From IMG/VR virus record IMGVR_UViG_3300013122_000001, positions 1 through 47,765 of that record: a stretch of DNA of 47,765 nucleotides. One strand, written 5' to 3'. The notes under the pieces are model-generated. The model made no database searches, was not told the DNA's origin, and saw only the letters and a list, made by a program, of their open reading frames with translations. Positions 3,405 through 37,597 of the stretch are shown here, piece after piece. The first letter of the stretch is position 1, and every line of letters begins with the position of its first letter. Made by a program: the position numbers and the translations under genes. This DNA is from a virus (taxonomy: Duplodnaviria > Caudoviricetes).

Positions 3405-3524
3405 ATGATAACTATTGAGAAGGGTCCTAACTGGAAACAGGCTGAAGCGAACTTCTATCGACTGGCAGCGAAAATCATTACAGAAAAATCTAATGAAGAT
3501 AAGAAAGAAGTTAAAGCAGGGTAG
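3405..3524 (+). CDS. Hypothetical protein (39 aa)
   Basis: AGGAGG RBS, ATG to TAG. Confidence 0.6.
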   Translation: MITIEKGPNWKQAEANFYRLAAKIITEKSNEDKKEVKAG

Positions 3525-3549
3525 ACCGATATAGCGAAGGAGAGAGGAT

Positions 3550-3804
3550 ATGACAATCGAAGAGTTAAACGATATCAAAAAAAGATTGAATAATGCTATT
3601 TCTGTCGGAAAAGGAATTGACCATAAATTAGACTTAATGTCTGATGTAGATAGAGTTATAGCTGAATATAAACAACTTCAATCTTTTTATAACTACTTTT
3701 CTGAATTAAATGGTCAAGGTTTAGAGGTCGCCAATTGGCATCAAAACGGAGAACTAGAACCGTTTGACAACTTCTTTGACAGTGCAGAAGATTCATTAAA
3801 GTAA
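3550..3804 (+). CDS. Hypothetical protein bracketed by 8-6-8 sites
   Basis: ORF with RBS; sites at 3516-3537 and 3806-3827. Confidence 0.7.
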   Translation: MTIEELNDIKKRLNNAISVGKGIDHKLDLMSDVDRVIAEYKQLQSFYNYFSELNGQGLEVANWHQNGELEPFDNFFDSAEDSLK

Positions 3805-3839
3805 CGAACATTACGACAAAACAATGAAGGAGGAAACCC

Positions 3840-4001
3840 ATGCAACGCTACAAAAAATTTCTAGGCTCTGTCATCAACGGCATGATCCTAATGGAAATCG
3901 TCCCATACTTCGACCTATCCACAAACAAAGAAGAACTTGCTTTCCAGACGAACAAAGGCGTCTCCATCAATTGTGAATTAGCAGTAAAAAAATATTTCTA
4001 A
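3840..4001 (+). CDS. Hypothetical protein (53 aa)
   Basis: AGGAGG RBS, MQRYKKFLGS... Confidence 0.6.
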   Translation: MQRYKKFLGSVINGMILMEIVPYFDLSTNKEELAFQTNKGVSINCELAVKKYF

Positions 4002-4004
4002 GGA

Positions 4005-4448
4005 GTGATTGGTATGTGTCAAAAATGTAAAAATGTTGAGCTTGAAACGAAGGTTGTTCCTGTCCAGTTTGATGATATGGAAATTGAAATGGAGCTTTGT
4101 GAAAGTTGTGAGCAAGAGTTTGCGGAACAGGATGCTCGTATGCAGAAGGAAGCTGAACAACTGGAGCTGGCGAAAAAGATTGTTGCTGCTATGGAAATTG
4201 GTGGAAGAATCAGCATTTCATTCCACACGGATTTGAATTATTCAGAGGAAATGGCTCGCCAATTGGTTAGTGAATTTGCGGATAATCCCGAAAAGGATAG
4301 CAATGGAGGGACACAGTGGATTAGCGGTACAAAGGGTTCTGTGAGTTGTACGGTATTTATCAAGCCGACAAAAGAAGATGAAATTGCAAACCTTGAAGAA
4401 AGAATTCGCCAACTCAAAGAGGGTGATTCGCATGAACGTACTGCGTGA
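4005..4448 (+). CDS. Hypothetical protein with N-terminal Zn ribbon
   Basis: CQKC..CESC; likely start at ATG 4014. Confidence 0.65.
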   Translation: MIGMCQKCKNVELETKVVPVQFDDMEIEMELCESCEQEFAEQDARMQKEAEQLELAKKIVAAMEIGGRISISFHTDLNYSEEMARQLVSEFADNPEKDSNGGTQWISGTKGSVSCTVFIKPTKEDEIANLEERIRQLKEGDSHERTA

Positions 4449-4641
4449 GTACCTGGAGCGCAAGTGGGATGAAGATGGAGTGATTCCCGAATGGCATACC
4501 ATTGCTGATGACCTATCTGATAAAGTCCCTCTGGAAACGTTAGAGGACATTGATAAAGAGGTTAATCGACTGATGCAGTACATCATTAAGAGTGAGGGTG
4601 TTATCGAATACGAGGGGGAGCCTAAACGCAAAATAAGCTGA
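4432..4641 (+). CDS. Hypothetical protein
   Basis: GAGGGTG RBS before MNVLREY. Confidence 0.6.
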   Translation: MNVLREYLERKWDEDGVIPEWHTIADDLSDKVPLETLEDIDKEVNRLMQYIIKSEGVIEYEGEPKRKIS

Positions 4642-4702
4642 CCACCGCCAAGTCATCAGCTTAAAAAATATTACACGTCCATTATAACAGGGAGGAACTA
4701 AA

Positions 4703-5542
4703 ATGAATAGCTTACAAGCACAATTTGAGGGGCAACAGGCTCCTTCATATAATATCGAAGCATCCAAAAGTCGTGAAATGGCTGAGGTTCAATCACAAAT
4801 ATTCTTAGCGAAGCAATTCCCGAGAAATGAGTATCAAGCTGAAATGAAGATAGCAGAAGCTTGCAAACGTCTGTCACTTGCAGAAACGGCTTTGTATCAA
4901 TTTCCTAAAGGCAATCAGAAGGTTATCGGGCCATCTATCCGATTAGCTGAAATGGTTGCTAGATACTGGGGAAACATTAGTTACGGCATTAAAGAAGTGG
5001 AGCAAAAGAAAGGTGAATCCACCATGTTAGCTTACGCATGGGATATGGAAACTAACACCCGTGTTGAAAAAACATTCCATGTGAAGCACGAACTTTACAC
5101 CAAAAACGGAATCAAGCAGCTCAACGATCCCCGCGACATTTACGAACATACTGCAAATCTCGGAACAAGACGGTTAAGAGCTTGCATTCTTGGAGTGGTA
5201 CCGGGTGATGTAGTAGAAAACGCAACAGAGATATGTAAACAGACCATGCAGAACGGATATAAAGAGCCTTTGAAAGACCGATTGGTTAAGGCTACATCGT
5301 GGTTAAAAGATAATTACGGCATTACACAAGAAATGGTCGAGGAAACGTTCGGCTATAAGTTTGAGTCATTTAATGAACAGGATTTTCAGAAATTAAGAAC
5401 TATTTCTCAATCACTCAAAGATGATATGGCGAAAAGGGAAGACTTTTTCAAACTAACCAGTACGAAAGAACCAAAAACATCCCTAGAGAAGCAATTCAAG
5501 GAGGGCGCAACTGATGGAGCTGCTGAAACTAACGAAGGATAA
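4703..5542 (+). CDS. Putative single-strand annealing/recombination protein
   Basis: FPR..GPSIRLAE..WGN motifs; directly upstream of the exonuclease as in Red/RecET-type pairs. Confidence 0.5.
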   Translation: MNSLQAQFEGQQAPSYNIEASKSREMAEVQSQIFLAKQFPRNEYQAEMKIAEACKRLSLAETALYQFPKGNQKVIGPSIRLAEMVARYWGNISYGIKEVEQKKGESTMLAYAWDMETNTRVEKTFHVKHELYTKNGIKQLNDPRDIYEHTANLGTRRLRACILGVVPGDVVENATEICKQTMQNGYKEPLKDRLVKATSWLKDNYGITQEMVEETFGYKFESFNEQDFQKLRTISQSLKDDMAKREDFFKLTSTKEPKTSLEKQFKEGATDGAAETNEG

Positions 5543-6326
5543 CTACTATTCCCAGGAGGCGGATAAAGCTTACTTTTCCGTCTCCCAATACAAAAGCTTT
5601 CTAAAGTGTGAATCCTCTGCATTAGCTAGACTGAATCGGACATATGAAGAACCGAAGAGTGATGCTTTATTACTGGGCTCTTATGTTCACTCTTGGTTAG
5701 ACGGGACCATGGAAGACTTCAAGAAAGAGAATCCATCTATATTCAGCACCCGTGGAGCTTCCAAAGGTGAACTAAAAGCCAACTTCAAACACGCTGATGA
5801 AATGGTGAAGGTTCTGGAGAAAGATTCCCTTTGCATGATGGCCCTTGAAGGTGAAAAGGAAGTAATCATGACCGGGCAACTATTCGGCGCACCTTGGAAA
5901 ATAAGGATGGATGTATACGCGCCAAACTTAGGTAGATTCGCAGATTTAAAGACCGTCAAGGCTATACGTGATAGGCACTGGATAGAAGGTGTCGGATGGG
6001 GTTCATTTGTTCAAGCATATGGCTACGTAACCCAAATGGCAGTCTATTCTCAAATAGAAATGCAAAACCGTGGTGGAGAACGTCTGGAGAACTATATTGT
6101 AGCAGTCTCCAAAGAAGAGATCCCCGATAAAGAAGTAATTACGGTGGATTTTGAAAGCATTGAGGAAGAACTGAAAGTAGTGGAAGAGAACATGCAGCGA
6201 TTGATCCGTGTGAAATCCGGTGAGCTATCCCCTAAACGATGTGGTAGCTGTGGTCATTGTAAGCGAACGAAGCAATTAACTGGTGTCACAAATTATCAAG
6301 ACTTAATAAATAATCCAGGGGCTTAA
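5514..6326 (+). CDS. PD-(D/E)XK exonuclease (DUF3799/RecE-like)
   Basis: SVSQYKSF, GSYVH, KIRMD..ADLKT, YxxQMAVY, C-terminal CGSCGHC. Confidence 0.8.
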   Translation: MELLKLTKDNYYSQEADKAYFSVSQYKSFLKCESSALARLNRTYEEPKSDALLLGSYVHSWLDGTMEDFKKENPSIFSTRGASKGELKANFKHADEMVKVLEKDSLCMMALEGEKEVIMTGQLFGAPWKIRMDVYAPNLGRFADLKTVKAIRDRHWIEGVGWGSFVQAYGYVTQMAVYSQIEMQNRGGERLENYIVAVSKEEIPDKEVITVDFESIEEELKVVEENMQRLIRVKSGELSPKRCGSCGHCKRTKQLTGVTNYQDLINNPGA

Positions 6327-6351
6327 TGCCCCTTTGGAAAGGGAGAGAAAA

Positions 6352-6546
6352 ATGAACGAAAATCAAATGTTTATAGTCGGTCACGCGCTCAACAATCAGA
6401 ATCGATTCTATACTGAGAGAACTGACCCAGACTGGAATGATTTAGTGACAAAAGGGTTTGCCAGTAAACATCCGGGTTGGGAAGATGATATGGCTTATTA
6501 TCGAGTTACTGAAGAAGGTCGTAAAGCTTACGGGGAATTATTATGA
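6352..6546 (+). CDS. Hypothetical protein
   Basis: ORF in early operon with RBS. Confidence 0.6.
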   Translation: MNENQMFIVGHALNNQNRFYTERTDPDWNDLVTKGFASKHPGWEDDMAYYRVTEEGRKAYGELL

Positions 6547-6800
6547 ACATCATCCGTCAACAAATCCTAGAAACCGTAACCAAACAACCTACCACCCTTA
6601 CAGACTTATCCCGTCAATATAAACTACCACGAGAATACATACAGACGGTGCTTGTACGCTTAATAGAAGAAGGTCACTCCTTATGTATCGAAAAGGAGGA
6701 ATACGTTTATATCGCAAAGGACAGGCTTCTGGACTACATGGTTATGGTGTCCATTCCATTAAGTTTAGTTGGATTGTTTGTCTATGGGTTGAGCATATGA
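6543..6800 (+). CDS. Winged-HTH-like protein with C-terminal transmembrane helix
   Basis: TLTDLSRQYKLPREYIQTVLVRL; hydrophobic tail. Confidence 0.55.
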   Translation: MNIIRQQILETVTKQPTTLTDLSRQYKLPREYIQTVLVRLIEEGHSLCIEKEEYVYIAKDRLLDYMVMVSIPLSLVGLFVYGLSI

Positions 6801-7018
6801 CACCACTCGTCTTAAAGCGGTCGGATCTACGCTCTCTGGCGCTGGCGATTATAGAACACGAAAAGAGGGGTTACGAATGTGTGGCCCCTTACAAGAAAAT
6901 GAAAACCCTTCGCAAAAATTGGAACTACAACCGCAGCAATAACGATTTCAAGGACTTTCGCGGAGTGGATGAATATGAATACTACATTGTGAAAATGAGG
7001 AAGGTGGAGACTGCATGA
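6797..7018 (+). CDS. Hypothetical protein
   Basis: ATGA overlap with neighbouring genes. Confidence 0.6.
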   Translation: MTPLVLKRSDLRSLALAIIEHEKRGYECVAPYKKMKTLRKNWNYNRSNNDFKDFRGVDEYEYYIVKMRKVETA

Positions 7019-7437
7019 GAGAGATTAAGTTTCGTTATTGGGATATGGCCAATAAAGAATTCATAACTGACGGCGATGTATATTTTGTTGCTGAAGATTG
7101 CATTTTAGCCGGGGATTTTGATAATCCTCCAGTTGTTGATATCACTGGCACTACTCTAATCAGTCAATACACAGGATTAAAGGATAAGAACGGAACGGAG
7201 ATTTATGAAGGTGATGTAGTCACCTTTGAAGATGCTCATTACTCCATAAGTGAAAACGGACAGGAATTTGGGATCTTTAAAAATGCTGGTGTCATCGAGT
7301 GGGATAACGAACAAGCACAATTCTTCGTTACTAATCGTCAATCTGTTGATTTAGAAACTTTCTTTAATTACATCCACGAAAGTGAAGTGATTGGAAATAT
7401 ATATACACACCCTCACTTACTGGAGGAATTAAAATGA
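7015..7437 (+). CDS. YopX family protein
   Basis: MREIKFR..QYTGLKDKNGTEIYEGD..EVIGNIY. Confidence 0.9.
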   Translation: MREIKFRYWDMANKEFITDGDVYFVAEDCILAGDFDNPPVVDITGTTLISQYTGLKDKNGTEIYEGDVVTFEDAHYSISENGQEFGIFKNAGVIEWDNEQAQFFVTNRQSVDLETFFNYIHESEVIGNIYTHPHLLEELK

Positions 7438-7676
7438 ACTGCCCCTTGTGTCAATCGAAAATGAAGGTACTCAATAGCCGACCACATAAAGAAGGGGTCT
7501 GGAGAATGAGGGAGTGCCTAGAGTGTTTAACTCGCATTCCGTCCATTGAGAAGTTTAATCTAGCTAATCTCCATCCCTTCCTATACAAACAACTTATAGA
7601 GAAGGAGGATAGCCTTGAATCTACTAATCAAGCAAATAGAAACACTTCAGGAATCATGCGTAAGGTGTCCCATTAG
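7434..7676 (+). CDS. NrdR-like Zn-ribbon protein
   Basis: MNCPLC..KVLNSR..RMRECLEC. Confidence 0.65.
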   Translation: MNCPLCQSKMKVLNSRPHKEGVWRMRECLECLTRIPSIEKFNLANLHPFLYKQLIEKEDSLESTNQANRNTSGIMRKVSH

Positions 7677-8088
7677 AATCGAGATCCGCAAGAAGTTCAC
7701 TGAAACTACCGCCAAGAATTTCTGCAATACTCAATGTCCCACGGGTAAAGTGGTTAGTGAAAAGCAGAAGAAATTGGAATTAGGTGTATCTTGGTTGTCT
7801 GATATTGCGGATAATCTCACACAATCGCAATACAAAAAACTATCCAAACTTTACACTGATAAAGAGATAACCCAAATGACTGGTTTATCCTCCTCCACCT
7901 TGACTGTTAGAAAACGGTCATGGGGACTAACCAGAATAGAACCGCTATTATCCGATAAGACATATGAGGACTATCTGGAGCTACGCAGGAAGGATATGAG
8001 CTACCGGGAAATAGCAAATGCCTGGGGAGTGGGAAAAAGTACGCTACATCGCTTTATAAACCGTTGTATAAGGGAGGGGAAGAAATGA
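7615..8088 (+). CDS. Zn-finger + HTH DNA-binding protein
   Basis: CVRC..C..CPTG; MSYREIANAWGVGKSTLHRF. Confidence 0.65.
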   Translation: MNLLIKQIETLQESCVRCPIRIEIRKKFTETTAKNFCNTQCPTGKVVSEKQKKLELGVSWLSDIADNLTQSQYKKLSKLYTDKEITQMTGLSSSTLTVRKRSWGLTRIEPLLSDKTYEDYLELRRKDMSYREIANAWGVGKSTLHRFINRCIREGKK

Positions 8089-8213
8089 CACTAGATGTCT
8101 ATGTATGTGGATGTGGTGAAGAGTTTGCGACCAAAGACGGCCATGATCCAAACGGTTGCCCGTTTTGCTACTCACCAGAGATTGAGTTTAGTCATGAAGT
8201 AAAGGATGTTTAA
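8085..8213 (+). CDS. Small Zn-ribbon protein (42 aa)
   Basis: CGCGEEF..CPFC; GGGAGG RBS. Confidence 0.6.
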   Translation: MTLDVYVCGCGEEFATKDGHDPNGCPFCYSPEIEFSHEVKDV

Positions 8214-8254
8214 TAGACCGTAGACCGAGAATGTTCGATAAGGAGGAATGTTGA

Positions 8255-8524
8255 ATGGACGAATTGGAAAAGTCAGCTTATAGATTTATGAACCAACCGA
8301 GAAATGAAAGAGAAAAGTTAGAACAAATTCTTCAACATGACATTATCCAAGCAATAGAAGATGGATTTAACGGTCATGACGTTAGACGAGAAGAAATATT
8401 AAAAGATGTAAATTGGCTTATTGAAACGGTCATAAGGTTGGGAACAGAAGTCAAAATGTCTGATGAATTGTTAGACCAAAAACAAGAAACCATTAACCAC
8501 TTGTTAGAACAACTTAACGAATAG
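8255..8524 (+). CDS. Hypothetical protein bracketed by 8-6-8 sites
   Basis: AGGAGG RBS; sites at 8215-8236 and 8519-8540. Confidence 0.7.
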   Translation: MDELEKSAYRFMNQPRNEREKLEQILQHDIIQAIEDGFNGHDVRREEILKDVNWLIETVIRLGTEVKMSDELLDQKQETINHLLEQLNE

Positions 8525-8535
8525 TCCGAGGAGGT

Positions 8536-8655
8536 ATGACATTGAGGTTAAGGGAAAATGATAATCTGTTAGGTTGTGGATGGATTTTGTTTGAAATAAG
8601 CTTAATGATTTTTGCAGTATTACTATTTTCAATATTTTTGATTGATTGGAATTGA
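8536..8655 (+). CDS. Small single-TM membrane peptide
   Basis: GAGGAGG RBS; ILFEISLMIFAVLLFSIFLI. Confidence 0.55.
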   Translation: MTLRLRENDNLLGCGWILFEISLMIFAVLLFSIFLIDWN

Positions 8656-8706
8656 CGCACTGTCCGACCATACGGAATTGACCGATATAGTGAGGGAGTG
8701 TTTTCT

Positions 8707-8862
8707 TTGAAAAGAACCTTTAATCAGGCCGTAAAAGAGCAAATGGGGAAAGGTGTAGAGGTGTTCGTAGCAATTAAAACAGTAGAGGAAAGCGGAGAGT
8801 TTACCGAAGAGGAAATTCAAGGTTGGTGGGATAGGTTTAACGAACTGAAAAGTAAAAGTTAA
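8707..8862 (+). CDS. Hypothetical protein (51 aa) bracketed by 8-6-8 sites
   Basis: GAGGGAG RBS, TTG start; sites at 8672-8693 and 8864-8885. Confidence 0.6.
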   Translation: MKRTFNQAVKEQMGKGVEVFVAIKTVEESGEFTEEEIQGWWDRFNELKSKS

Positions 8863-8966
8863 CGAACATTCCGACCAAAATGCGCGGAAGTAAAATTCAA
8901 CCCATATTATACAGTGAGTGCGCGAAATTGTAACGAAGCACGTACAATCTAATAGGCGGTGAAAAC

Positions 8967-9137
8967 ATGGAAGAAGAAAAATACGTTCGTACAGATGAAA
9001 TCACAGATTACGTGTACAAAGGATTACTGGCCAGAGGTTTAGTTCCTGCAAGTGAAGAGGTGGAGATCATCGGGGATATCGTTTTTGACTTCCTGGTTCA
9101 CAAAGGGGTACTGGTAGAAGAAGGAGAGAATGGATAA
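8967..9137 (+). CDS. YozD-like protein (56 aa)
   Basis: TDEITDYVYKGLLARGLVPASEEVEIIGDIVFDFL resembles the YozD family as recalled. Confidence 0.55.
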   Translation: MEEEKYVRTDEITDYVYKGLLARGLVPASEEVEIIGDIVFDFLVHKGVLVEEGENG

Positions 9138-9271
9138 TGAAGAAGTGTAATTATTGCGGAGGTAAAGGAAAGGTATACATCGGAATTAAACATGTTTCTC
9201 AAGGATTTAGTCTCAAAGCTGTCAATTTAAAAACACTGTGTACCAAATGTCATGGGTCAGGAGTTAGGTAA
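9137..9271 (+). CDS. Small DnaJ-type Zn-finger protein (44 aa)
   Basis: CNYCGGKG..CTKCHGSG. Confidence 0.6.
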   Translation: MKKCNYCGGKGKVYIGIKHVSQGFSLKAVNLKTLCTKCHGSGVR

Positions 9272-9272
9272 T

Positions 9273-9307
9273 AAAAAAGAGGATAACCCACATTAGGATT
9301 ATCCTCT
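9273..9307 (-). terminator. Terminator between convergent genes
   Basis: AGAGGATAA/TTATCCTCT stem with an A run on the left. Confidence 0.6.
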
Positions 9308-9490
9308 GGCAGCTCTCTTTTTATCACGAAGCTCAATGTACTTTAAGCCATACTTGATTAGCTCTTCAATTGCGATGCTGCGGTTATCCTTACGTTTACC
9401 AAATCTGTAGTCATCAACCAAAGAAAGAATTGCTGGATCCCAAGAAATTGTAGTAGATAGTTTGCTTGAATCTTTTCTGATATGTGCCAT
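9299..9490 (-). CDS. Ribbon-helix-helix protein
   Basis: TTISWDPAILSLVDDYRF..NRSIAIEELIKYGL. Confidence 0.7.
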   Translation of the reverse strand: MAHIRKDSSKLSTTISWDPAILSLVDDYRFGKRKDNRSIAIEELIKYGLKYIELRDKKRAARG

Positions 9491-9547
9491 TTGTGTTCGC
9501 TCCTTTTTTTATAAGTTTTCGTAATACGATGTTACGAAAGGGGTTGG

Positions 9548-9700
9548 TTAGTTTTCCTTAGATTCATCTTTCAAGTAAGTTTCCAGCAACAGTTCAATCT
9601 CTTTAGCAACAGATCGCTTATTTTCCTCAGCACGTTTCTTGATAGTTTCGAATAAATCATTGTCCATTCTAAGAGTAAAACGTTTCTGTTCGTTCGTCAT
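9548..9700 (-). CDS. Arc-family RHH repressor (50 aa)
   Basis: MTNEQKRFTLRMDNDLFETIKKRAEENKRSVAKEIELLL; AAGGAG RBS. Confidence 0.85.
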   Translation of the reverse strand: MTNEQKRFTLRMDNDLFETIKKRAEENKRSVAKEIELLLETYLKDESKEN

Positions 9701-9782
9701 TTTACATTTCTCCTTTTATATAGGTGTCAGTTAGCACCATTATAAATCATGAGAAAAATTTTGTAAAGACAAAAGATGAACA

Positions 9783-9842
9783 TTGACGTCACTTAGATGA
9801 CGGGTTATAATTATCTTATGGAGGTGACGTCACTTTGATGAC
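9783..9842 (+). promoter_or_regulatory. sigma-A promoter with two 18-bp operators
   Basis: TTGACG-17-TATAAT; TGACGTCACTT(A/T)GATGAC at 9784-9801 and 9825-9842. Confidence 0.8.
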
Positions 9843-9993
9843 TAAAGATGACCAAAAAAATAATAAAGTCAGCTACACTTTGCGTCTTAATAGCGAGATC
9901 AATGAAAGAATCGCTAAAGAAGCTAGTGAACTAGGACTCTCTAAACAAGCATACATCACGATGGTACTACATAAGGCGATTAAAAACGTTTAG
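9838..9993 (+). CDS. RHH (Arc/Mnt-like) protein (51 aa)
   Basis: KVSYTLRLNSEINERIAKEASELGLSKQAYITMVL; GGAGG RBS. Confidence 0.8.
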   Translation: MTKDDQKNNKVSYTLRLNSEINERIAKEASELGLSKQAYITMVLHKAIKNV

Positions 9994-10086
9994 TGGGTTC
10001 CTGGGGAATGAAAGGAGTTGATTTATATGTAATACGGACAAGTCATCTATTAGTTTCATAATCTAAAAAAATATTTGGAGGTTATT

Positions 10087-10347
10087 ATGAAAAGTTTAGG
10101 TATCGTTCGTAAAATTGATGATTTAGGCCGTGTTGTTATCCCTAAGGAAGTAAGGGACACGCAACAATGGAAGAGTGGTCAACCAATGGAAATGTTCATG
10201 AGTACAGAAGGTCTAGTGCTTCGTCCATATGGTGAGGATCGTGAGAAAGCTGAAATCCTTTTCGCTCTGAATGACCTATTAAACTCTCAAACTCCAGAAG
10301 TTCAGTACATCGCAGCTCAAACAATCAAATTCTTAAAGAAGGGATGA
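10087..10347 (+). CDS. AbrB-family DNA-binding protein
   Basis: MKSLGIVRKIDDLGRVVIPKEVR closely matches the AbrB N-terminus. Confidence 0.9.
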   Translation: MKSLGIVRKIDDLGRVVIPKEVRDTQQWKSGQPMEMFMSTEGLVLRPYGEDREKAEILFALNDLLNSQTPEVQYIAAQTIKFLKKG

Positions 10348-10351
10348 TTCA

Positions 10352-11068: not shown

Positions 11069-11112
11069 TGTTGGCGCACTAGACAAAGGATTCGCTCGTT
11101 TTTAATTATTAT

Positions 11113-11172: not shown

Positions 11173-11201
11173 TGTGAAAGTATCAAAAAGTAGGTGAAAG
11201 A

Positions 11202-12598: not shown

Positions 12599-12887
12599 TA
12601 CATTAGGCGGTCAACATCAAGAAGAACTAAGAGCAGACGCGATGAAGTATCGCTCATTCGATAAATTGATGAAAGAAGAGCGAATGGACACTTATATTTC
12701 TTTGGAGGAACTGGACTTTGTCTGGGATCTCCAAGAAGTCCATGAATTCGATGAACTATGGACCACCGGCAGAGAAGAAGGAAAATCCCCGGAATACCTG
12801 ATACGAGATATCGCAGAGTATTTTGGAAGGGAAGAAGACGAGATCGCAATCCTAGCCTTGGATAGAGGGAGGAAGAACAAGATATGA
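12591..12887 (+). CDS. Hypothetical phage protein
   Basis: ORF in replication operon. Confidence 0.6.
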   Translation: MANTLGGQHQEELRADAMKYRSFDKLMKEERMDTYISLEELDFVWDLQEVHEFDELWTTGREEGKSPEYLIRDIAEYFGREEDEIAILALDRGRKNKI

Positions 12888-13019
12888 ACCTCAATTATGA
12901 AGACATACCTCAACCCAGCAAAAAGAACATAGCCATTATCCTTCTGGAGTACGCCAAAGAAGAGGATAACAATAAGGCTTATATAGAAGCTGCCATTCAG
13001 TTGTTAAAAGGTAATTGAT

Positions 13020-13841
13020 ATGAGAAAAGCCATCACCTACCGTATAGGCGATTTGCTAGAAACTCATTGTGAAGGTTGTAAGAAGATACCGTTCGCCAGA
13101 AGTTCGAGTAAAGGGATCGCGTGGTGCGGAAAAAATTGCGATATCGGAAAAGAATTAAAGAAGCTCGGTGAACAACTCGATAAAACGGTTAATCCAAGAA
13201 GGGAGCCAGAAACTATGTCAAGTAGAGGGGTATTAACACAAGAATCATATGAGCAAGCAAAATCAGAGGGGTTATCAGAAAAAGAGGTTGCAAAAGCGTT
13301 TGGGATTTCTGTTGGGACATTATGGAACCGTAAAAATGTTTGGAATATAAACAATCATGATGAAAAGTTGGTTAAAAAGCAGACTACACCAAAAAAGAAA
13401 AAGAGGAAAGCTGCCGAATCGACTTCACTTGCTGTTGCTTGGAAAGAAGAATACGCAGAGCTTGAAAAAGCAAACGATACTCTGCAACGAAAATATGAAG
13501 CAGCTATCAATGAGAATACGGAATTGAAAGAGAAATATGACCGCCTTTATCTGGACAAGCAAGAGATTCGAGATCAGTTCAATAAAACGTGTGAAGACTT
13601 AGAAGAAGAGATTGAGAGTCTAAAAGAAGAACTCTCCAAGAGAAAAGACCTCCAATTGGAATTTTCAGAAGGTGCAGCAAACCAACTTCTTAAGATGAAT
13701 GAAGTGGTAAAAGAAAAGGATGCGCTTCTGGAGTCCATAGAAAGCCGATATGGGAAAGAAACAGACAGGCTGAATGCTATTAACCTAGAATTACATGAAA
13801 AGCTGGAAGCGTACAAAATGGCGCTCAAGGTATCGTTGTAA
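13020..13841 (+). CDS. Zn-finger + HTH + coiled-coil protein
   Basis: HCEGC..C..CDIGKE; LSEKEVAKAFGISVGTL; long coiled coil. Confidence 0.65.
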   Translation: MRKAITYRIGDLLETHCEGCKKIPFARSSSKGIAWCGKNCDIGKELKKLGEQLDKTVNPRREPETMSSRGVLTQESYEQAKSEGLSEKEVAKAFGISVGTLWNRKNVWNINNHDEKLVKKQTTPKKKKRKAAESTSLAVAWKEEYAELEKANDTLQRKYEAAINENTELKEKYDRLYLDKQEIRDQFNKTCEDLEEEIESLKEELSKRKDLQLEFSEGAANQLLKMNEVVKEKDALLESIESRYGKETDRLNAINLELHEKLEAYKMALKVSL

Positions 13842-26622: not shown

Positions 26623-26910
26623 ATGATGAGTAAATACAGAAAGAAACCAGTGGAAATTGAAGCTTTTAAGTTTTATGTAGACCCTATGCCTGATTGGTTT
26701 ATGGATAAAGTCACAACCAATGAAGTTAGTCTGAGAAATTGTGGATATAGTCACTCCACTATTGAAGAAGCATATTGTGAAATTAAAACACTCGAAGGAA
26801 CAATGAAAGGCAATGGTGGAGATTACATCATAAAAGGGGTTCAAGGTGAGATATACCCTTGCAAACCCGATATTTTTGAATCTACCTATGAAAAGGTAGA
26901 CGCATTTTAA
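26623..26910 (+). CDS. Conserved phage protein (PGDYG-like)
   Basis: YRKKPVEIEA..IKTLEG..GDYIIKGVQGEIYPCKPDIF. Confidence 0.75.
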   Translation: MMSKYRKKPVEIEAFKFYVDPMPDWFMDKVTTNEVSLRNCGYSHSTIEEAYCEIKTLEGTMKGNGGDYIIKGVQGEIYPCKPDIFESTYEKVDAF

Positions 26911-26982
26911 TCATACTTGACCGAAACGTCGTTAAACTAACACATTAAGGCTCGTACTTAATGGGTAAAAAGGAGGATTCAC

Positions 26983-28950: not shown

Positions 28951-28961
28951 GGAGTGATTCG

Positions 28962-29102: not shown

Positions 29103-29106
29103 TCCT

Positions 29107-30135: not shown

Positions 30136-30139
30136 TACC

Positions 30140-30565
30140 ATGTCCGCTTTATGGCCTTTACAAGTAGCATTATTCCAACGGTTATCCAATGACCCCAGTG
30201 TTTCGAGTTTGGTGACAGGGGTGTTTGACCATATACCAGAGGAATTGAGGGATGAAAACGGTGAATTAAAGCCAGTAGCATTCCCTTACGTCCGAATAGG
30301 GGAGCCTAGTGTTCTGCCATTCGACACGAAAAATAAGATAGGCGAAGAGATTTCTATCGTCATTCATACATGGAGCCAAGCAAGTGGAAAGAAACAGTCT
30401 TACGACATTCTGGAAGCATGTTTTCGCTCTATCTTCTTACAACCACTCTCCTTGCAGGGTGGTTTTTCAATTAAACGCATAACCCGTCAAACCATTCAAG
30501 TGATTGATGACATTGACGGAAAGACCTACCACGGAGTATTAAGGCTCCAAGCAAACATCCAATAA
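30140..30565 (+). CDS. Tail terminator (DUF3168/SPP1 gp17)
   Basis: LQVALFQRL..GVFD..FPYVRIGE..HGVL. Confidence 0.85.
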   Translation: MSALWPLQVALFQRLSNDPSVSSLVTGVFDHIPEELRDENGELKPVAFPYVRIGEPSVLPFDTKNKIGEEISIVIHTWSQASGKKQSYDILEACFRSIFLQPLSLQGGFSIKRITRQTIQVIDDIDGKTYHGVLRLQANIQ

Positions 30566-30576
30566 GGAGTGATACC

Positions 30577-31098
30577 ATGCAAAACGGTAAAGATACTATT
30601 CTATTAGTTCAAGCAGTAGATGCAGCATTAGGGACAGATGGTTTTGTTATCGGACATTTAACTGAAAACAGTTACTCAATCGAAAACGAAATCGTAGACG
30701 AACAAACGAAGTTCGGGCGCATTGTTGCTTACGGTAACAACAGTGAATCTTTTGAGTTCACGGCCTATGGCGAAAAAGGAGATCCCGGCCAAAAGGCGGT
30801 CCTTGATGCCATCAAGAATAAAAAGCAGTTGAAGGTTTGGGAGGTGGACTTGAACCAAAACGAAAACTTGATGCACGATGCAGTATTTGCATTTTGCGTA
30901 GTGGAGAGTGTAGAGAAGTCCAGTCCGGGTGAAGGATTCCAAGAGGTTTCCGCGACAGTACAGGTTATCGGTTCCTCACAAGAAGGGGAAATCGACCCAC
31001 TACCACCTGAAGTAATCGCATTTGCTCAATATGCATTTGAAGCACCTGGAACTACAACAGGCGAATTCCCTGATAATGAACCTGCACCGACACCATAA
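30577..31098 (+). CDS. Major tail protein (TP901-1/SPP1 gp17.1-like)
   Basis: GKDTILLVQ..DEQTKFGR..VWEV; gene position. Confidence 0.85.
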   Translation: MQNGKDTILLVQAVDAALGTDGFVIGHLTENSYSIENEIVDEQTKFGRIVAYGNNSESFEFTAYGEKGDPGQKAVLDAIKNKKQLKVWEVDLNQNENLMHDAVFAFCVVESVEKSSPGEGFQEVSATVQVIGSSQEGEIDPLPPEVIAFAQYAFEAPGTTTGEFPDNEPAPTP

Positions 31099-31151
31099 GA
31101 GGGCGAGTTTTTCTCGCTCTTTTTTACTTATAAATTAGGAGGAATATCATA

Positions 31152-31604
31152 ATGGCACTTTTAGAAATCAAAGGTAAATCATACGAAGCGAAATGTACAT
31201 TTAAGTTTGACCGATTAGCGGATAAGAAATATTCCGAAGAGGATAAAGATGGTAACTCCATGGGTGGATTTATGTCCCTATACATGAACCTGCTGCAATA
31301 CTCTCACAAACATCTATTAGCATTCTGGGATTGCGCCTTAGAATATCTCGGAAAAGAAAAACCTTCAATGGCAGAAATTGAAGAAGCACTGGAAGCGCGT
31401 ATTGAGGAAGATGATGACACAGAAAAGTTGTTCCAAGAAGCTTTCAATGCGGTGGACCAATCGGGTTTTTTCAAGAAACAAGCCAAGAACTTCTGGAAAG
31501 ACTTCGAGACAGTAAAAGAACAAGGGAAAACGGACGAAGAGAAAGCGGACAATCTGAAAATGTACAACATGATGATCGCTCGCCGAAACGAGCTGAAGGC
31601 ATAG
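31152..31604 (+). CDS. Tail assembly chaperone G
   Basis: Between major tail and tape measure genes; SGFF slippery site. Confidence 0.8.
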   Translation: MALLEIKGKSYEAKCTFKFDRLADKKYSEEDKDGNSMGGFMSLYMNLLQYSHKHLLAFWDCALEYLGKEKPSMAEIEEALEARIEEDDDTEKLFQEAFNAVDQSGFFKKQAKNFWKDFETVKEQGKTDEEKADNLKMYNMMIARRNELKA

Positions 31605-31966
31605 ATTATGACGAAATGTTGGTTAACTCTTCCCATTATCTCGAAGTCTACGATACGGATTTAATCTATTCGTGGACTCCCAGAGAGTATAAGAACTTTG
31701 TGAAGGGCGCTCAACATCGTGAGATAGATAGATATGAACAAATGGCAAAAGGGGCCATGATGAATCGTTATGCGAATAATGCTAAATCCGTGAAAGAGAA
31801 GAAAATGTTTGATGCGGATAAGGCGCGTAAAAGGCTTAATTCTGATTCGAAAGAATGGAAAGATAGCAAGGATAGCGTAATGGATTTAACTCGCTACAAG
31901 AAGGCGAGAGAAGCCTTAAACAACTATAAGCCGACATTCAAATCGAAAGGGGGCAAACGCAAATGA
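31463..31966 (+). CDS. Tail assembly chaperone GT extension via -1 frameshift
   Basis: G GGT TTT heptamer at 31463-31469; -1 frame open to 31966. Confidence 0.7.
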   Translation, partial: GFFQETSQELLERLRDSKRTRENGRRESGQSENVQHDDRSPKRAEGIDYDEMLVNSSHYLEVYDTDLIYSWTPREYKNFVKGAQHREIDRYEQMAKGAMMNRYANNAKSVKEKKMFDADKARKRLNSDSKEWKDSKDSVMDLTRYKKAREALNNYKPTFKSKGGKRK

Positions 31967-34758
31967 GAGAAAACTTCTCGGCAGTCATAGGTGCTAAGAT
32001 TTCAGAATTCCGTAAAAAGATGGCGCAAGTGGATCGTATCGTGAAAAGAACGGCGATGGAGACGGTTAAACCTATTGGTGCGAATATTAATCGTTTTAGA
32101 AAGCAAATGGCGAAAGTGGAAGCGACCAATAAACTTCTGTTAAAACGTTCTGATAAGACGATTGGCGCGGACATCCGTGAATTCATGCGTAAAGCGTCAC
32201 TTGTGGCTGCTGCTACCAGAGCATTAAACAAGCGAGTGATTATTGATATAGACGCGAGAGTGAACAATTTTCAACGTGTCATCGGCAAAATTGCTAACAC
32301 GATTAGATCCGTGGATACAGTCCTATTAAATGGTATCGGTGGTTCCCTTGTTGCAATGATCCCGGCATTAGTTCCGATGATAGCCGGATTAACTGGAGTT
32401 ATCGCGATGCTCGGAAACATGATAGGAGTAGTGAGTGGTTCAACATTCGCCTTAGTAAGCGCGCTATTTTTTGCCGGAACTGCAGCAGCTGCGTTTGGGG
32501 CTATTGCTATTCCTACTATCATGAATGTATTTGGCGAAACAGAGAAGCTTACAAAAGCACAAGCGGCCGCCAGAGCTGAATTCGATAAATTTACTGATAC
32601 GTACAAAGACATCGTGAAATCATTAGAACAACCCGTGTTAGATGCATTCTCAAAGGCCATGAAAATTGCTACTCGCCTACTGGAAATGTCCAGACCTTTA
32701 TTCGAAGCATCCGCAACCGCCATGAACAACCTCTTAGACGCGTTTAATCGCACCTTAGATAGTAAGCCTATGATTGCATTTTTCGATTACATGAATAAAG
32801 CAGCAGGACCTTTGTTTGAGCAAGTGATGAAAGGTATCGGTTGGATGGTGCAAGGGTTACTGAATATGTTTGTCGCATTCGGTCCACTTGCTGAAGCAAC
32901 GGCAAAAGGCTTTACCGATATGAATAAACGCTTTGCGGATTGGGCGGGGAATCTTGGAAGCAACAAAGGGTTTCAAGCGTTTGTAGATTACGTCCAGGAG
33001 AATATGCCAAAAGTCCGCGCTATCTTCCGAGATATGATAAGTGGAACAATCCGGTTGTTTGCTGCATTCAGTGGTCAGTCAGGGGAAATGATTGACGGTT
33101 TCGCTGATATGATGGCTCGCTATAAGGATTGGGCTTCGAACTTGGGTAACAACAAACAATTCCAAACATTTTTAGACTACATCCGAAAAACGGGGCCTGG
33201 AGTATTAAAATTCCTTGGTAATTTCATTAAATTTATCGTCAATATCGGGATTGGTATGGCTCCTTTGGGTGCTTGGTTGATTAAAATAGCCAACAACTTC
33301 TTTGAATGGGCTAATAGCATGATGAAAGCGAATCCGATTATTGGAATGATTTTCGCTGCTATCGTTTCCTTGACGGGTGTATTTATCGCATTAGTTCCGT
33401 TTTTAGTAGCCATGAGAGTGTTGTTTGCCGGATTTGGCAAAGCACTAATGGGATTTGCTAAAGGAGCATTAAGTAATTTAGCTAAAGCTTTTAAGTTCTT
33501 AATGGGACCAATCAGAACCGTGGCTTTATCCCTTATGATACTTGGGAAAGGCGCTTTAGTTGCAGTAATTGTACCGATTCTTGCAGTTATAGCAGTAATC
33601 GCATTGTTGGTCGCCGTTTTCGTCCGATTGTGGAAAGAGAACGAAGCATTTAGAGAAGGTGTCCTTGCGGTATGGGAAGCGATTAAAACCGCGATTACTA
33701 TTGCAATTGACTATATAGTTCAGTGGATCACTACGGTATGGGGTGCACTCACTACATGGTGGGATGAAAACAATCAAACATTCTATGCTGTAGCTCAAAA
33801 AGTTTGGGATACGGTCTATACCGTTATTACAGAGGTCTTGTATTTAATTTGGGACATCTTTGTTCAGATTACCAATAGCATTATGGATTTATGGGCGGAA
33901 CACGGAGACTTAATCACGGCCATCATCAAGGGTGCATGGGACATCATATCCGAAATCATAGGCAACACCATCACTTTGGTATGGAACCTGATTAAAGCGG
34001 GATTAAAATTTATCCTCGGCTTATTCCAGTCGGTTTGGCCTATCATTTCAGGAGTCGTTCAAATTGCTTGGGCGCTCATTAAATCAATCATCAAAATTGG
34101 AATCGACTTTATCGCCGGCATCATAGATTTCTTCTTAAATGTATTCCAAGGAGATTGGGACGGAGCTTTTGCTGCAGTCTTAGAAACCACTATCAAGATA
34201 TGGAACACCATTGTTGATACCTTCGAGGGAATTGATTTATGGCAGATTGGTAAAGACATTGTACAAGGTTTAATCAACGGAATAACAAACATGGCTGGAG
34301 CGGTTTGGGATTCGGTTAAATCACTTGCAAACAGTATTCCGAGTGGAATCAAGTCCTTGCTTGGTATTCATTCTCCTTCAAGGGTGATGGAAGGTATTTC
34401 GAAGTGGATCCCAGCTGGAGTGGCGAGTGGTATCAATGGAAATCTAAATACCATTAAATCAGCAATGTCAAAAGTGAAGGATGCAACGATGTTCGAACCA
34501 GAACAAACAAACCTTTCTTTTGGTAATGCAATCGACCAAGGAATCCAATCTATCAAACATGAGCTAGAAGTAACTTTAAATAGATTAAGTGGTGATACTC
34601 CTGTTGCAGCTGGGGGAACCACTAACACTTACAACAATGAAAGAATGCTAGAAGGCGCTATCTTCCAAGTGAGAGAAGAAGCAGACATTGAGAAAGTAGC
34701 TAAAAAGCTTGGCGATCACATGAAACATCAAGCGAAGTCGAGGGGAGCGGGACGATGA
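31963..34758 (+). CDS. Tape measure protein
   Basis: 931 aa helical protein with W/F periodic repeats and LGIHSPSRV. Confidence 0.92.
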   Translation: MRENFSAVIGAKISEFRKKMAQVDRIVKRTAMETVKPIGANINRFRKQMAKVEATNKLLLKRSDKTIGADIREFMRKASLVAAATRALNKRVIIDIDARVNNFQRVIGKIANTIRSVDTVLLNGIGGSLVAMIPALVPMIAGLTGVIAMLGNMIGVVSGSTFALVSALFFAGTAAAAFGAIAIPTIMNVFGETEKLTKAQAAARAEFDKFTDTYKDIVKSLEQPVLDAFSKAMKIATRLLEMSRPLFEASATAMNNLLDAFNRTLDSKPMIAFFDYMNKAAGPLFEQVMKGIGWMVQGLLNMFVAFGPLAEATAKGFTDMNKRFADWAGNLGSNKGFQAFVDYVQENMPKVRAIFRDMISGTIRLFAAFSGQSGEMIDGFADMMARYKDWASNLGNNKQFQTFLDYIRKTGPGVLKFLGNFIKFIVNIGIGMAPLGAWLIKIANNFFEWANSMMKANPIIGMIFAAIVSLTGVFIALVPFLVAMRVLFAGFGKALMGFAKGALSNLAKAFKFLMGPIRTVALSLMILGKGALVAVIVPILAVIAVIALLVAVFVRLWKENEAFREGVLAVWEAIKTAITIAIDYIVQWITTVWGALTTWWDENNQTFYAVAQKVWDTVYTVITEVLYLIWDIFVQITNSIMDLWAEHGDLITAIIKGAWDIISEIIGNTITLVWNLIKAGLKFILGLFQSVWPIISGVVQIAWALIKSIIKIGIDFIAGIIDFFLNVFQGDWDGAFAAVLETTIKIWNTIVDTFEGIDLWQIGKDIVQGLINGITNMAGAVWDSVKSLANSIPSGIKSLLGIHSPSRVMEGISKWIPAGVASGINGNLNTIKSAMSKVKDATMFEPEQTNLSFGNAIDQGIQSIKHELEVTLNRLSGDTPVAAGGTTNTYNNERMLEGAIFQVREEADIEKVAKKLGDHMKHQAKSRGAGR

Positions 34759-35606
34759 CGGACTATCTAGGAGATAAATCATTCGAGGAATTGGGAATAG
34801 TGATGTTGCAAAGTTATCAGCACCCGGTCCCTAGCACTCGTGATATGACATTAACCATACCAGGTAGACACGGTACTTACGATTTTGGGGCGACCCTTGA
34901 TAGTAGGTACTTTGATTTACCTGTCGCTTTGATAGAAAATGACAGCGCTTCTGTACAAAAAGGAATAAGAGTTCTAACAACTCACTTATTCGATTCAAAG
35001 GGAAAGCCTAAAATCATGAAACTTATTTTCGATGAAGAACCGGAAAAACACTATTGGGTGCGGTATGGTGGATCCATGCCAATACAAAGAATTGTTGGAG
35101 TGGGAATATTCAGTCTGCCTTTAATCGCATTCGACCCTTTCGCATACGCAGAACAATCCTTTACTCCAAGTTACGTAGACACGAATTTACGTTATGACAC
35201 AGGACAAACGTATGAACCCCAACCCAATGCGTTGCAGTATGGAGAAATGAAAGAATTCTTTTATGAAAATGTACAAGAGTTCGAGTGGAAGTATTCTCGG
35301 CATTATAGTTTCTTGCACAATCATTCAGACTATGAGTCCTCTTTGATAATAGAAGTAGAAGGGACAGTAATAAACCCGAGAATAACGAACCTGACAACGG
35401 GGAAAAAGATATTTTTACCTTCTATAAGTAATAAATTGTTGCAAATGGATAGTGGGAAATTTTTGGTGAAGGTGGAAGGTATTTCTAATTTTACTGATTA
35501 TAGAGGGGATTTTCTTGTTCTTGCACCCGGAACGAACGACCTAGTATTTGAAGGTGGATTACCAGACGCGGTTGTTCGTTATAATTGGCAACATAAATTT
35601 TTGTAG
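34755..35606 (+). CDS. Distal tail protein (Dit)
   Basis: IPGRHG..LIFDEEPEKHY..AFDPFAY..LAPGTN. Confidence 0.85.
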   Translation: MTDYLGDKSFEELGIVMLQSYQHPVPSTRDMTLTIPGRHGTYDFGATLDSRYFDLPVALIENDSASVQKGIRVLTTHLFDSKGKPKIMKLIFDEEPEKHYWVRYGGSMPIQRIVGVGIFSLPLIAFDPFAYAEQSFTPSYVDTNLRYDTGQTYEPQPNALQYGEMKEFFYENVQEFEWKYSRHYSFLHNHSDYESSLIIEVEGTVINPRITNLTTGKKIFLPSISNKLLQMDSGKFLVKVEGISNFTDYRGDFLVLAPGTNDLVFEGGLPDAVVRYNWQHKFL

Positions 35607-35611
35607 AAAGG

Positions 35612-37549
35612 GTGAATGTGATGGTAATAAAGTTAAAAACGACTGACTCATGGGACACGTTCCGATATACACTCCCTTCAGATACTGGGGCTCCCATTGA
35701 CTTAACTGGCGCAAGTGTTTCATTCGTTATGGCGAAATCGAACAAATTAGCACCAGTCATTAACAAGCCCGCAGAAATTATAGATGCAGCAATCGGAAAG
35801 GTTCAATATAAATTTGAAGGGTCAGATACACTCTTGCATGGTGATTTTCTAGCGGAATTTCATGTTGTATTTCCAAATGAGGATAGAAAAACTTTTCCTA
35901 CCTCGACATATTTGAAAGTACAAATAGCGCCGAACCTAGACATCTCCTTACCTGGATCCATCGAAGAAAACATCATCATCCAAGTATCGGAGATTGAGCA
36001 ATTTAAAACGGAAATTACTGCTGAGGTTGAAAAGGTTAATAATTTCCAATCCCAAATTGACCAGATGACGATTGAGGGTGATTCGAGCGTTGAAGCAGCA
36101 CAGGCGCGGGTGAAAGCGGATGGTAGTTCGTTCACTACTTTGCGTGATAGGCTGAATAATGCTGATGAACATTTGGCACAAACTGCGACGGACTTAGATC
36201 AGAGAGGATTGAATGTAAAATTATTCGGAGCAGTAGGTGACGGTTTTAGTCACCCTTTGAGTAATTACTATTCCACCTTAACTGAAGCTCGAATAATTTA
36301 CCCAAAGGCAACTGCGTTAACAGATGAAATAGACACTTGTGCAATACAGAAAGCAATTGATAGTGGTAGAAAAGTTTATATACCCGAAGGAACATATCTA
36401 ATATCAAACACGATAAATATTTCTCGTGAGGGTGTATATATAAGTGGAGCTGGTTTAAAAAGCACCAGGCTAACATATAAAGGAACTCAGTTAGACTTTT
36501 CAATCTTTTATTTGTCTTCCTCCTCTTTTGCAACAATAGAGAAACTAAATACTCACAACCCTGCAAATAAAGGAATTGGAATCAGAGTTAAAAGCGGCAC
36601 AGGTAACTTAGTAACCAGAGATTTTGGAGCCTATTTCTTAGACGTAGGAATTTACTATGAAGAAAACACATTTCTGCATTATATTGAGAATTGTCATTTT
36701 TACGGTTGTAGCTTTGGAGTTAAATCGGTTTGGAATTTCAACGCAATTACTTTTATTCGCACATCTTTTGGGTCGTGCGACGTTGGATTGGAAGTCGGTG
36801 AAGGAAGAACTGTTTCAATAGAAAGTTGTCATTTTGAAGAGAACAGAATAGGATTGAAGAAAATTAACGGAGGTAATATATCCGTTTCTAAATCTTACTT
36901 TGAAGCTAATTCTGACAACTCTATACAGATCGTTTGGGGAACTGAAAGTCCTGAAATAGTTACCATTGATTCTTGTGATTTTTATCGAACGACTTCCACA
37001 GGTGCAGAAATTAGTTATCATTTAGCTGAGAACAGGTTTGTTAATATTCAAAACTGTTTGTTTAAAGCTGGCGTGCCTGCATATGCTGTAACACAATATC
37101 AATACACTTTAGCTAAATTCACATGGTTAAACAATACATTGGTTAATAGTGAAATCATGCAAGATAAACCATCTCTTGAAAGATTGTTAAAAAATACAGA
37201 TCAAAGATCAATTTATTCTAATCATAATGGGATATATAAACTAATAACCGAGGACAATATTAATTTAAAAAATTATATTGCAAAAGGTGAAACTTGTTTA
37301 AGATTTGTCCTAAGTAGCACAAGTAAAGTGATTACTCTCCCTAGAATATCATCATTGGTCGATGCTCCAGCCGTCTCATTTTTCTTTCAGGGTGCTACGG
37401 ATACAGTTACCGTATCATTCGCAAATGAGGATGCGAACACATGGATGAATGGGGTAAGGACATTAACAACAGCAGACAATAATAAAGAATTTAAAATTGT
37501 ATGTTTACGAGCAACTGCTGCACAAACAGAATATAGACTTCTTTCATAA
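35612..37549 (+). CDS. Tail spike 1: BppU-like N-terminus + beta-helix (pectate-lyase-like) receptor-binding/depolymerase domain
   Basis: IDLTGASVSF..GKVQY..AEFHV..TFP; NVKLFGAVGDG..IQKAID..VYIPEGTY. Confidence 0.8.
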   Translation: MNVMVIKLKTTDSWDTFRYTLPSDTGAPIDLTGASVSFVMAKSNKLAPVINKPAEIIDAAIGKVQYKFEGSDTLLHGDFLAEFHVVFPNEDRKTFPTSTYLKVQIAPNLDISLPGSIEENIIIQVSEIEQFKTEITAEVEKVNNFQSQIDQMTIEGDSSVEAAQARVKADGSSFTTLRDRLNNADEHLAQTATDLDQRGLNVKLFGAVGDGFSHPLSNYYSTLTEARIIYPKATALTDEIDTCAIQKAIDSGRKVYIPEGTYLISNTINISREGVYISGAGLKSTRLTYKGTQLDFSIFYLSSSSFATIEKLNTHNPANKGIGIRVKSGTGNLVTRDFGAYFLDVGIYYEENTFLHYIENCHFYGCSFGVKSVWNFNAITFIRTSFGSCDVGLEVGEGRTVSIESCHFEENRIGLKKINGGNISVSKSYFEANSDNSIQIVWGTESPEIVTIDSCDFYRTTSTGAEISYHLAENRFVNIQNCLFKAGVPAYAVTQYQYTLAKFTWLNNTLVNSEIMQDKPSLERLLKNTDQRSIYSNHNGIYKLITEDNINLKNYIAKGETCLRFVLSSTSKVITLPRISSLVDAPAVSFFFQGATDTVTVSFANEDANTWMNGVRTLTTADNNKEFKIVCLRATAAQTEYRLLS

Positions 37550-37597
37550 TGAACAGTTGGACACTACTGGGTAGTAACACATTTTAATAAAACACAA

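Follow-up and report, generated by a model that had tools for sequence, protein, structure and literature searches.

Dyad sites with a 6-bp spacer border exchanged genes and a tail-fibre domain in a temperate siphophage and are candidate recombinase crossover sites

The viral sequence IMGVR_UViG_3300013122_000001 (IMG/VR; Duplodnaviria; Caudoviricetes; positions 1 to 47,765), analysed over its full length of 47,765 nucleotides and referred to here as the window, is the whole genome of a temperate siphophage (100% complete, with ends overlapping by 20 bases). It carries an integrase, repressors, early genes and modules for replication, packaging, tail and lysis. The nearest named relative is Bacillus phage vB_BhaS-171 (BhaS-171), and the host therefore probably belongs to the Bacillaceae. 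The subject of this study is a set of nine related 22-mers on the plus strand, each composed of two 8-bp arms around a 6-bp spacer. All nine sites described in the first-pass annotation were recovered at their positions, each occurring once, and the observation is confirmed. Sequence comparison with relatives indicates that they are a real feature and real swap points between related phages. Probably, they are crossover sites for a putative tyrosine-type site-specific recombinase, which would act in trans and apparently is not encoded by the phage.

In the early region, the site at 3516..3537 (spacer GACCGA) overlaps the TAG stop codon of ORF 3405-3524 and ends 12 nt before the ATG at 3550. 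It is followed by an 84-aa cargo gene (3550..3804), which belongs to no PHROG, Pfam or NCBIfam family and has 51 other homologues in the protein database, and by the site at 3806..3827 (CGACAA). A second cluster begins with the site at 8215..8236, whose spacer GACCGA occupies positions 8223-8228. An 89-aa cargo gene of no family (8255..8524) runs into the site at 8519..8540 (CGAGGA, with a weak right arm). Next come a predicted 37-aa cargo ORF with a TTG start (8542..8655; called by our own gene caller) and the site at 8657..8678 (CGACCA), the right arm of which overlaps by 7 nt the left arm of the site at 8672..8693 (GACCGA). These two sites share an arm within 8657-8693, as though the segment between them had dwindled to nothing. 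The 8672 site precedes the ribosome-binding site of a 51-aa cargo ORF of no family (8707..8862; 54 aa from the GTG at 8698), after which the site at 8864..8885 (CGACCA) follows. The remaining two sites belong to the tail fibre/spike gene (35612..37549, plus strand). One (36167..36188; GGCACA) lies in frame at the junction of anchor and receptor domain and encodes E-H-L-A-Q-T-A, and the other (37551..37572; GGACAC) follows the stop codon.

Counted from the first base of the stop codon, the sites at 3806, 8215, 8657, 8864 and 37551 start at +4, 8519 at -3 and 3516 at -6. A start codon follows 12-18 nt after the end of the sites at 3516, 8215 and 8672; the 8215 site is therefore both a downstream and an upstream site. 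The 8672 site lies upstream of a ribosome-binding site only, and 36167 is within the tail-fibre gene. A probable decayed tenth slot was found at 3372..3393 (plus strand; centre AACCGA; score -8.4), which a relative in run X10 leaves at 3378 with a consensus right arm. An uncertain extra site (26911..26932, plus strand; GACCGA; rank 12) lies directly 3' of the stop of ORF 26623-26910.

To avoid circularity, scoring matrices were trained on 47 non-window sites from other phages. The 22-position matrix placed the sites at 36167, 8864, 8672, 3806, 3516, 37551 and 8657 at ranks 1, 2, 3, 4, 5, 6 and 8 of approximately 95,000 position-strands, while 8215 and 8519 ranked 293 and 803; the two weak sites are confirmed by aligned sequences of relatives. 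The bare count is borderline only and was equalled by the best shuffle: six positions exceeded 12 bits in the window, whereas 30 shuffles gave 1.9 on average and 6 at most. With a matrix of the arms alone, the nine sites ranked 1, 6, 10, 12, 48, 93, 245, 1712 and 15273, and no excess for a 6-bp gap was detected across the whole window. The real support for the sites is positional and comparative and does not lie in their count. Single sites are poor palindromes (2-5 of 8 pairs). The arm facing into the cassette, described earlier as the better conserved one, is so in six of the nine sites and not in the rest. All nine score higher in gene-sense orientation than reversed; boundary sites in relatives are also gene-sense, though collected that way. 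The first-pass annotation is corrected in that the sites all point in the same direction.

The tail fibre consists of a BppU-like N-terminus, a GDSSVEAA linker and a pectate-lyase-like beta-helix cargo domain. In many of 60 other proteins with this N-terminus, similarity ends at the E-H-L-A-Q-T-A motif, beyond which lie unrelated catalytic domains (pectate-lyase-like, GDSL, deacetylase, peptidase and others). A search of viral contigs with the fibre N-terminus yielded none that could be confirmed. The window and BhaS-171 share the spacers GGCACA and GGACAC and the same terminator, with unrelated cargo in between (best E 0.37). The right-hand spacer is also identical in locus L035. DNA immediately left of the left tail site is unlike between the two phages; identity reaches 52% for Dit, 45% for the fibre N-terminus and 81% for the next spike. 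The slot shows a double replacement of cargo between two unlike, conserved spacers, as the first-pass annotation had envisaged. The second tail spike (37647-39611), closer to its BhaS-171 counterpart than its neighbours are to theirs (45-52%), has no flanking site of the nine-site family. Tandem tail genes with a GDSSVEAA linker in both were seen in L053 (10049 and 11705), where the second gene has left and right sites.

Further tail loci, 29 from genomes and 79 from viruses, were fetched via the GDSSVEAA linker peptide; deduplication left 77 unique loci, and the set was extended by 40 regions. An LA[QEDHN] motif is located 30-39 residues past the linker in 26 of the 77 loci. Its leucine codon is TTG in 22 of these 26, compared with 19% of the leucine codons in those genes, 21 of 123 other Leu-Ala pairs, and 19/68 and 23/61 at two other linker leucines. 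Codons -2 and +4 around the in-gene site are mostly NCG or NCA, and the adjacent codons write out the dyad. The in-gene tail site is constrained at the DNA level. Close pairs of tails stop aligning within the spacer, after GGC or GGCA (offsets 10-11). L047 and L064 are 96.7% identical over 1412 bp and then break in the spacer, L074 and L076 show 92.6% over 1228 bp, and L067/L094, L081/L047, L043/L081 and L043/L047 also break there. Altogether, 15 of 3267 alignment ends fell into sites above 14 bits, where 4.0 were expected. Among tails with a left site, counting that of the window, 8 of 22 had a right site no more than 13 bases from the stop, as against 2 of 50 tails lacking the left site (Fisher 0.0008). 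The right site appeared only with a 6-bp gap, other gaps giving 0-1 instead of 8/22, and 7 of the 8 right-hand spacers begin with GGA.

Breakpoints were also compared in the early region. Positions 2500-9300 were aligned with contigs from four public runs, each belonging to a different study, and 21 of 50 loose ends were listed. Four of the 21 listed ends are located in sites (8228 and 8870 in run X2, 8523 in X5, 3819 in X7). The X2 relative is identical through 8228, the last base of the spacer, and continues with a new arm, ribosome-binding site and ATG. Conversely, L181, found via the 89-aa cargo protein, matches the window from 8223, the first base of the same spacer, over about 150 bases with two differences; its left arm differs from that of the window, and its match ends mid-gene, away from any site. 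The X7 relative joins at 3819 with another left arm and the spacer CGAGCA instead of CGACAA, the X5 relative at 8523 after different upstream sequence and a different left arm, and X2 at 8870 with a different left arm. Identity that begins at 8223 and ends at 8228, together with tail ends at spacer offsets 10-11, places the crossover within the spacer, as expected for a tyrosine-recombinase core site. One X2 contig joins 8228 to 8946, which may reflect replacement of the whole block. The prediction that homology breakpoints would fall at the sites was thus borne out at 3806, 8215, 8519 and 8864, where relatives start or stop inside the site and the foreign side carries another consensus arm. 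Scored with a matrix from whose training they had been left out, all six foreign arms, including one at the decayed slot near 3378, ranked among the best 0.04-1.9% of 8-mers in the window, and this consensus fit is a stronger point than the breakpoint count. The exact 8864 site had 0 matches in viral contigs, and cargo genes gave one weak match and otherwise none in the phage collection and 91 genomes.

The site family extends, by record titles, from Bacillaceae to Paenibacillus and Herbinix prophages, with arrays in L152, L183, L164, L156, L121, L127 and BhaS-171. Among 2928 unique genes, 55 matches with a 6-bp gap were found near stop codons, compared with 19-34 for gaps of 3-5 and 7-10 bp. 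Relative to the stop, matches peaked at +4 (13) and +5 (7) over approximately 2.7 per position, and expectation maximization placed 37 of 76 sites at +4 or +5; its use on pre-start windows was abandoned when it converged on terminators. Near stops and after tail genes, selection is thus for a dyad whose centre is strictly 6 bp, as originally postulated. Tyrosine-recombinase core sites likewise have two inverted arms around a fixed spacer of 6-8 bp. The arms are about 12 bp long with the consensus T-A-n-n-G-(C/A)-R-C-A-R-T-(T/C), and the bases at the spacer edges are TT/TC-N6-AA/TA. The outer T and A at -4/-3 serve as stop codon on the left, yet they are mirrored on the right and retained inside the tail gene. 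Co-variation between arms was not detected (4.03 compared with 3.88 +/- 0.12, p 0.10, 70 sites), so we regard the sites as double-stranded dyads and not as hairpins; folding as DNA was weak (-0.2 to -3.5 kcal/mol). A strict site pattern occurred in 1 of 401 Bacilli genomes, equal to the control, and this match lies in a prophage array. Many of the 26 pattern matches in viral contigs are intragenic or belong to unrelated viruses, and these were left out of the set of sites. In L120, two ORF-less inserts of 60-80 bp (12858-12935 and 13191-13270) split a site of this family and carry a third arm type (TTTGGACTGATAA / GGTCTGAT) in two or three copies. A similar hybrid, GCGTAGTT-CGTCAA, was seen in L116, L198, L229, L230 and L251.

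Spacers are typical of their slots: GGC.. at the left and GGA.. at the right of the tail slot, GAC.. and CGA.. in the early region. Across 44 boundary sites, 8 different first triplets occur (CGA 21, GGA 10, GAC 5) and 20 different second triplets, a contrast that is partly built in because the matrix favours commoner first triplets. The earlier rule of GACCGA at left ends and CGAnnA at right ends survived for the first triplet, which is constant, and for nothing beyond it. Like spacers stand in direct repeat within the window (GACCGA three times, CGACCA twice) and elsewhere: GAATCA flanks a 67-aa gene in L183, CAAATA is found at three sites in L121 and CGAAAC at two in L127. Unlike spacers would therefore guard most single cassettes of the window, but excision is open elsewhere, and blocked excision is not supported as a design rule. 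A strict matching-spacer requirement is not supported either, since 7 of 11 breakpoint pairs of this family share just the first 3-4 spacer bases. In the tail pairs the variable triplet stays with the sequence downstream of the site, whereas at 3806 it accompanies the upstream sequence. A mismatched overlap resolved by replication would fit this pattern, and so would later drift.

A second family with other arms, YAAAA-N6-TTTK, was detected at +4/+5 of stops in other prophages (23 matches, compared with 4-10 for other gaps). It occurs in L132, L134, L142-L145, L148, L150 and L190-L269; one record is titled Bacillus dicomae, and the other loci we take, from gene content, to be of the B. cereus group. 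In 52 related loci, 232 contexts with a 6-bp gap were counted, compared with 58-114 for other gaps, and alignment ends pile up there. Spacers are identical in 48 of 70 breakpoint pairs; 15 pairs share the second triplet only, 5 the first only and 2 neither. Few spacers are used (TAATCC, ATTTCA, GCGTTA, TAGTTA, ACGCTA). Several tails that lack the LAQ site have an I-G-I-L motif at their junction, and this motif may be the in-gene form of the family. Since the second family behaves alike, the swap-site principle recurs with other arms.

In the mechanism that we propose, a recombinase would bind each 8-12-bp arm and cut at the spacer edges, and the spacer, chiefly its first triplet, would choose the partner. 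Cargo would be replaced when phage genomes residing in the same cell recombine at both ends of a slot. Within one genome, a single crossover at two like spacers would remove a cassette or add one. The reaction would put up with mismatches in the second triplet, and replication would resolve them, as in IntDOT. A wider version, to which we give somewhat less than even chances, is that temperate phages across the Bacillota share a dedicated host- or helper-borne site-specific system in which the 6-bp spacer names the slot, a putative recombinase swaps accessory genes and in-frame receptor-binding domains with almost no flanking homology, and the arms, G(C/A)RCARTT or YAAAA, are lineage-specific.

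Several results weigh against a site-specific recombinase as the agent. A six-frame search of the genome with PF00589 detected the integrase only (597..1700, minus strand, with an arm-binding domain) and none with PF00239; the integrase was thus, as annotated before, the sole tyrosine recombinase, and no resolvase-family gene was found. No unannotated gene was common to the 11 site-bearing records compared. An excised circle or a reaction was not seen; reads of the tail stretch crossing either tail site were absent and hence uninformative. The four family-1 breakpoint pairs of 11 with identical spacers fall below what a classic tyrosine recombinase needs. From the genome average, 46 matches near stops would be expected, and the 55 found amount to only 1.2 times that number. 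Of the stretch compared with the runs, 2.2% is covered by sites, and four of the 21 listed ends would have P of about 0.001 on a uniform null, which is too kind because gene borders are hotspots anyway and ends also occur at site-free borders; 17 of the 21 lie at non-site borders, for example 7437 and 9122. In the tail set, 51 of the 77 linker loci have no in-gene site, and 14 of the 22 tails with a left site have no scored right site by the stop. Alignment ends are enriched to the left of the tail site as well (17 compared with 6.9), an effect of centring the loci on the linker, and the GGC of the tail spacer is partly fixed because Leu-Ala was used for selection. An orphan tyrosine recombinase of about 180 aa, considered as the enzyme, failed the site test and stays a candidate without support.

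The genes that the 11 site-bearing records do have in common are HTH, integrase and structural genes only, and the presumed attP (331-600) holds no member of the nine-site family (best score 3.0). The 180-aa orphan was present in 7 of 50 phage records, missing from complete site-bearing phages, and present in 18 of 26 host genomes; of 71 stretches of DNA downstream of it, 22 scored as a family-1 site, compared with 25.6% in shuffles. It adjoins what we take to be a RinA/ArpU-type regulator. A pair of inverted dyads of about 30 bp, some 90 bases apart, follows it at 30-150 bases (L142, L144, L193, L197, L278 and others); these are likely its own sites.

Part of the evidence could also be read as homology-focused exchange, in which a protein binds or nicks the dyad and a RecE-like phage nuclease and an annealing protein complete the swap via a few shared bases. 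The window encodes a two-gene homologous-recombination-like module (4703..6326, plus strand), composed of a 279-aa protein of no assigned family, with a weak Rad52-like lead (0.75), and a DUF3799/exonuclease VIII-like nuclease, and it also encodes a RusA-like resolvase. Spacer mismatches are common, and motifs around receptor domains are interpreted as homologous hotspots in the available text of PMC10408124. We nevertheless consider this route unlikely: identity at the junctions is only 6-10 bp, with mismatches at both spacer edges at 8215, the arms vary in sequence yet hold their consensus, the window and BhaS-171 share a spacer despite unlike DNA beside the left tail site, and annealing needs no fixed 6-bp gap. 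The fixed gap would suit the host recombinases XerC/XerD (CodV/RipX) if they used the sites as relaxed dif sites. The arms are slightly unlike (A at position 2 in 19 left and 2 right arms of 70 sites), the searched hosts encode tyrosine recombinases of about 300 aa, and Bsdif is given as 11-6-11 in the accessible part of PMC5357621. The dif-like sites in 2 of 5 host genomes, however, read AA-N6-TTATGT, as do pdif sites in the available text of PMC13141974, whereas the sites described here have TT/TC-N6-AA/TA, and their orientation does not alternate. Host Xer, which the first-pass annotation had suggested as the enzyme, is therefore quite improbable. Several dif-like sites with different spacers were seen in single Peribacillus and Mesobacillus genomes (four in G536, three in G537). 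Xer-like genes are merely named in a Bacillus phage in the accessible text of PMC6669507.

That 8 of the 9 sites lie at gene borders, that a dyad fits a dimeric regulator and that many breakpoints occur at site-free borders would also be expected if the sites were transcription-factor operators or RNA-processing marks, near which swaps cluster only because these are gene borders. The best site, however, is within the tail-fibre ORF, at the very point where the domains switch, slot-specific centres are not expected of an operator, and sites are touched by 1 of 14 promoter-like and 0 of 2 terminator-like matches. The strict pattern was no more frequent in Bacilli genomes than the control (1/401), and the LexA-type box GAAC-N4-GTTC, an identity that had been named as a possible refutation, is absent from all nine sites. 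Such a role is very improbable. Integron-like sites of the attC type, recombined as single-strand hairpins, would explain the directly oriented site just past each stop, the arrays in L152, L183 and L164 and the short identity at the crossover. Arms without co-variation and weak folding speak against them, as does the phage integrase, which scored 53 bits where the cut-off for integron integrases (TIGR02249) is 265, and we find this explanation scarcely credible.

The origin of phage mosaicism at gene borders is a long-standing question, and the usual answer combines selection with illegitimate or homology-driven exchange. In the phages compared here, genomes switch at a defined word of 22-30 bp whose centre is specific to the slot. 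If the wider version of the mechanism is true, it would give mosaicism an enzymatic basis and provide a natural cassette-exchange tool. The enzyme, once identified, would represent a new recombinase specificity. A published description of these sites was not found in the literature searched, which covered few subscription papers.

Known systems share individual properties with the sites. The pdif/dif modules of Acinetobacter plasmids, as described in the accessible part of PMC13141974, also lie between two-armed sites with a 6-bp spacer that picks the partner; a single module is replaced by two crossovers, one spacer mismatch is tolerated, and the enzyme acts in trans. In contrast, pdif arms are XerC/XerD sites (..TAA-N6-TTATGT..) of alternating orientation, whereas the phage sites have arms of the type G(C/A)RCART(T/C), point in one direction, reside in phages and overlap stop codons, with one of them in frame. 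The sites thus work like Acinetobacter dif modules, yet they differ in arms and orientation and are not members of that group. For E. coli phage tailspikes, the portion of Pas et al. 2023 (PMC10408124) that was available describes homology blocks of 20-95 nt, one of them a terminator, read as homologous hotspots; the present sites are instead 22-30-bp dyads with a fixed spacer that also serve early genes. PeSL cassettes of T4-type phages are likewise repeated intergenic elements driving modular shuffling in variable regions, but are described in the available text of PMC2839356 as promoters plus terminator hairpins, and the phage sites are neither promoters nor hairpins. Integron cassettes, including attC sites in phages (accessible part of PMC9892861), resemble the sites in direct orientation downstream of small genes, in arrays and in an enzyme that the host may supply; IntI, however, recognizes attC sites as folded single strands, and neither hairpin nor IntI is present here. 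IntDOT of CTnDOT, according to the available portion of PMC2817482, needs identity only beside the first cut and tolerates a mismatched overlap, as proposed here, but it mobilizes a single large element linked to its gene and arm sites, a linkage not seen here.

Other features of the window were noted in passing. Five HNH endonuclease genes (at 2971, 13842, 18403, 41852 and 44255) are located within this 48-kb phage. After the lysis module, as in BhaS-171, an FtsK/SpoIIIE-like gene (44844-47765) is accompanied by a replication-relaxation-type gene (78-332), a gene piece that runs on across the contig ends. The LexA (Cheo) box has the consensus GAAC-N4-GTTC. Its single exact match in the window (1877-1888) is found between repressor and integrase and adjoins a promoter-like site on the minus strand (1928-1900).

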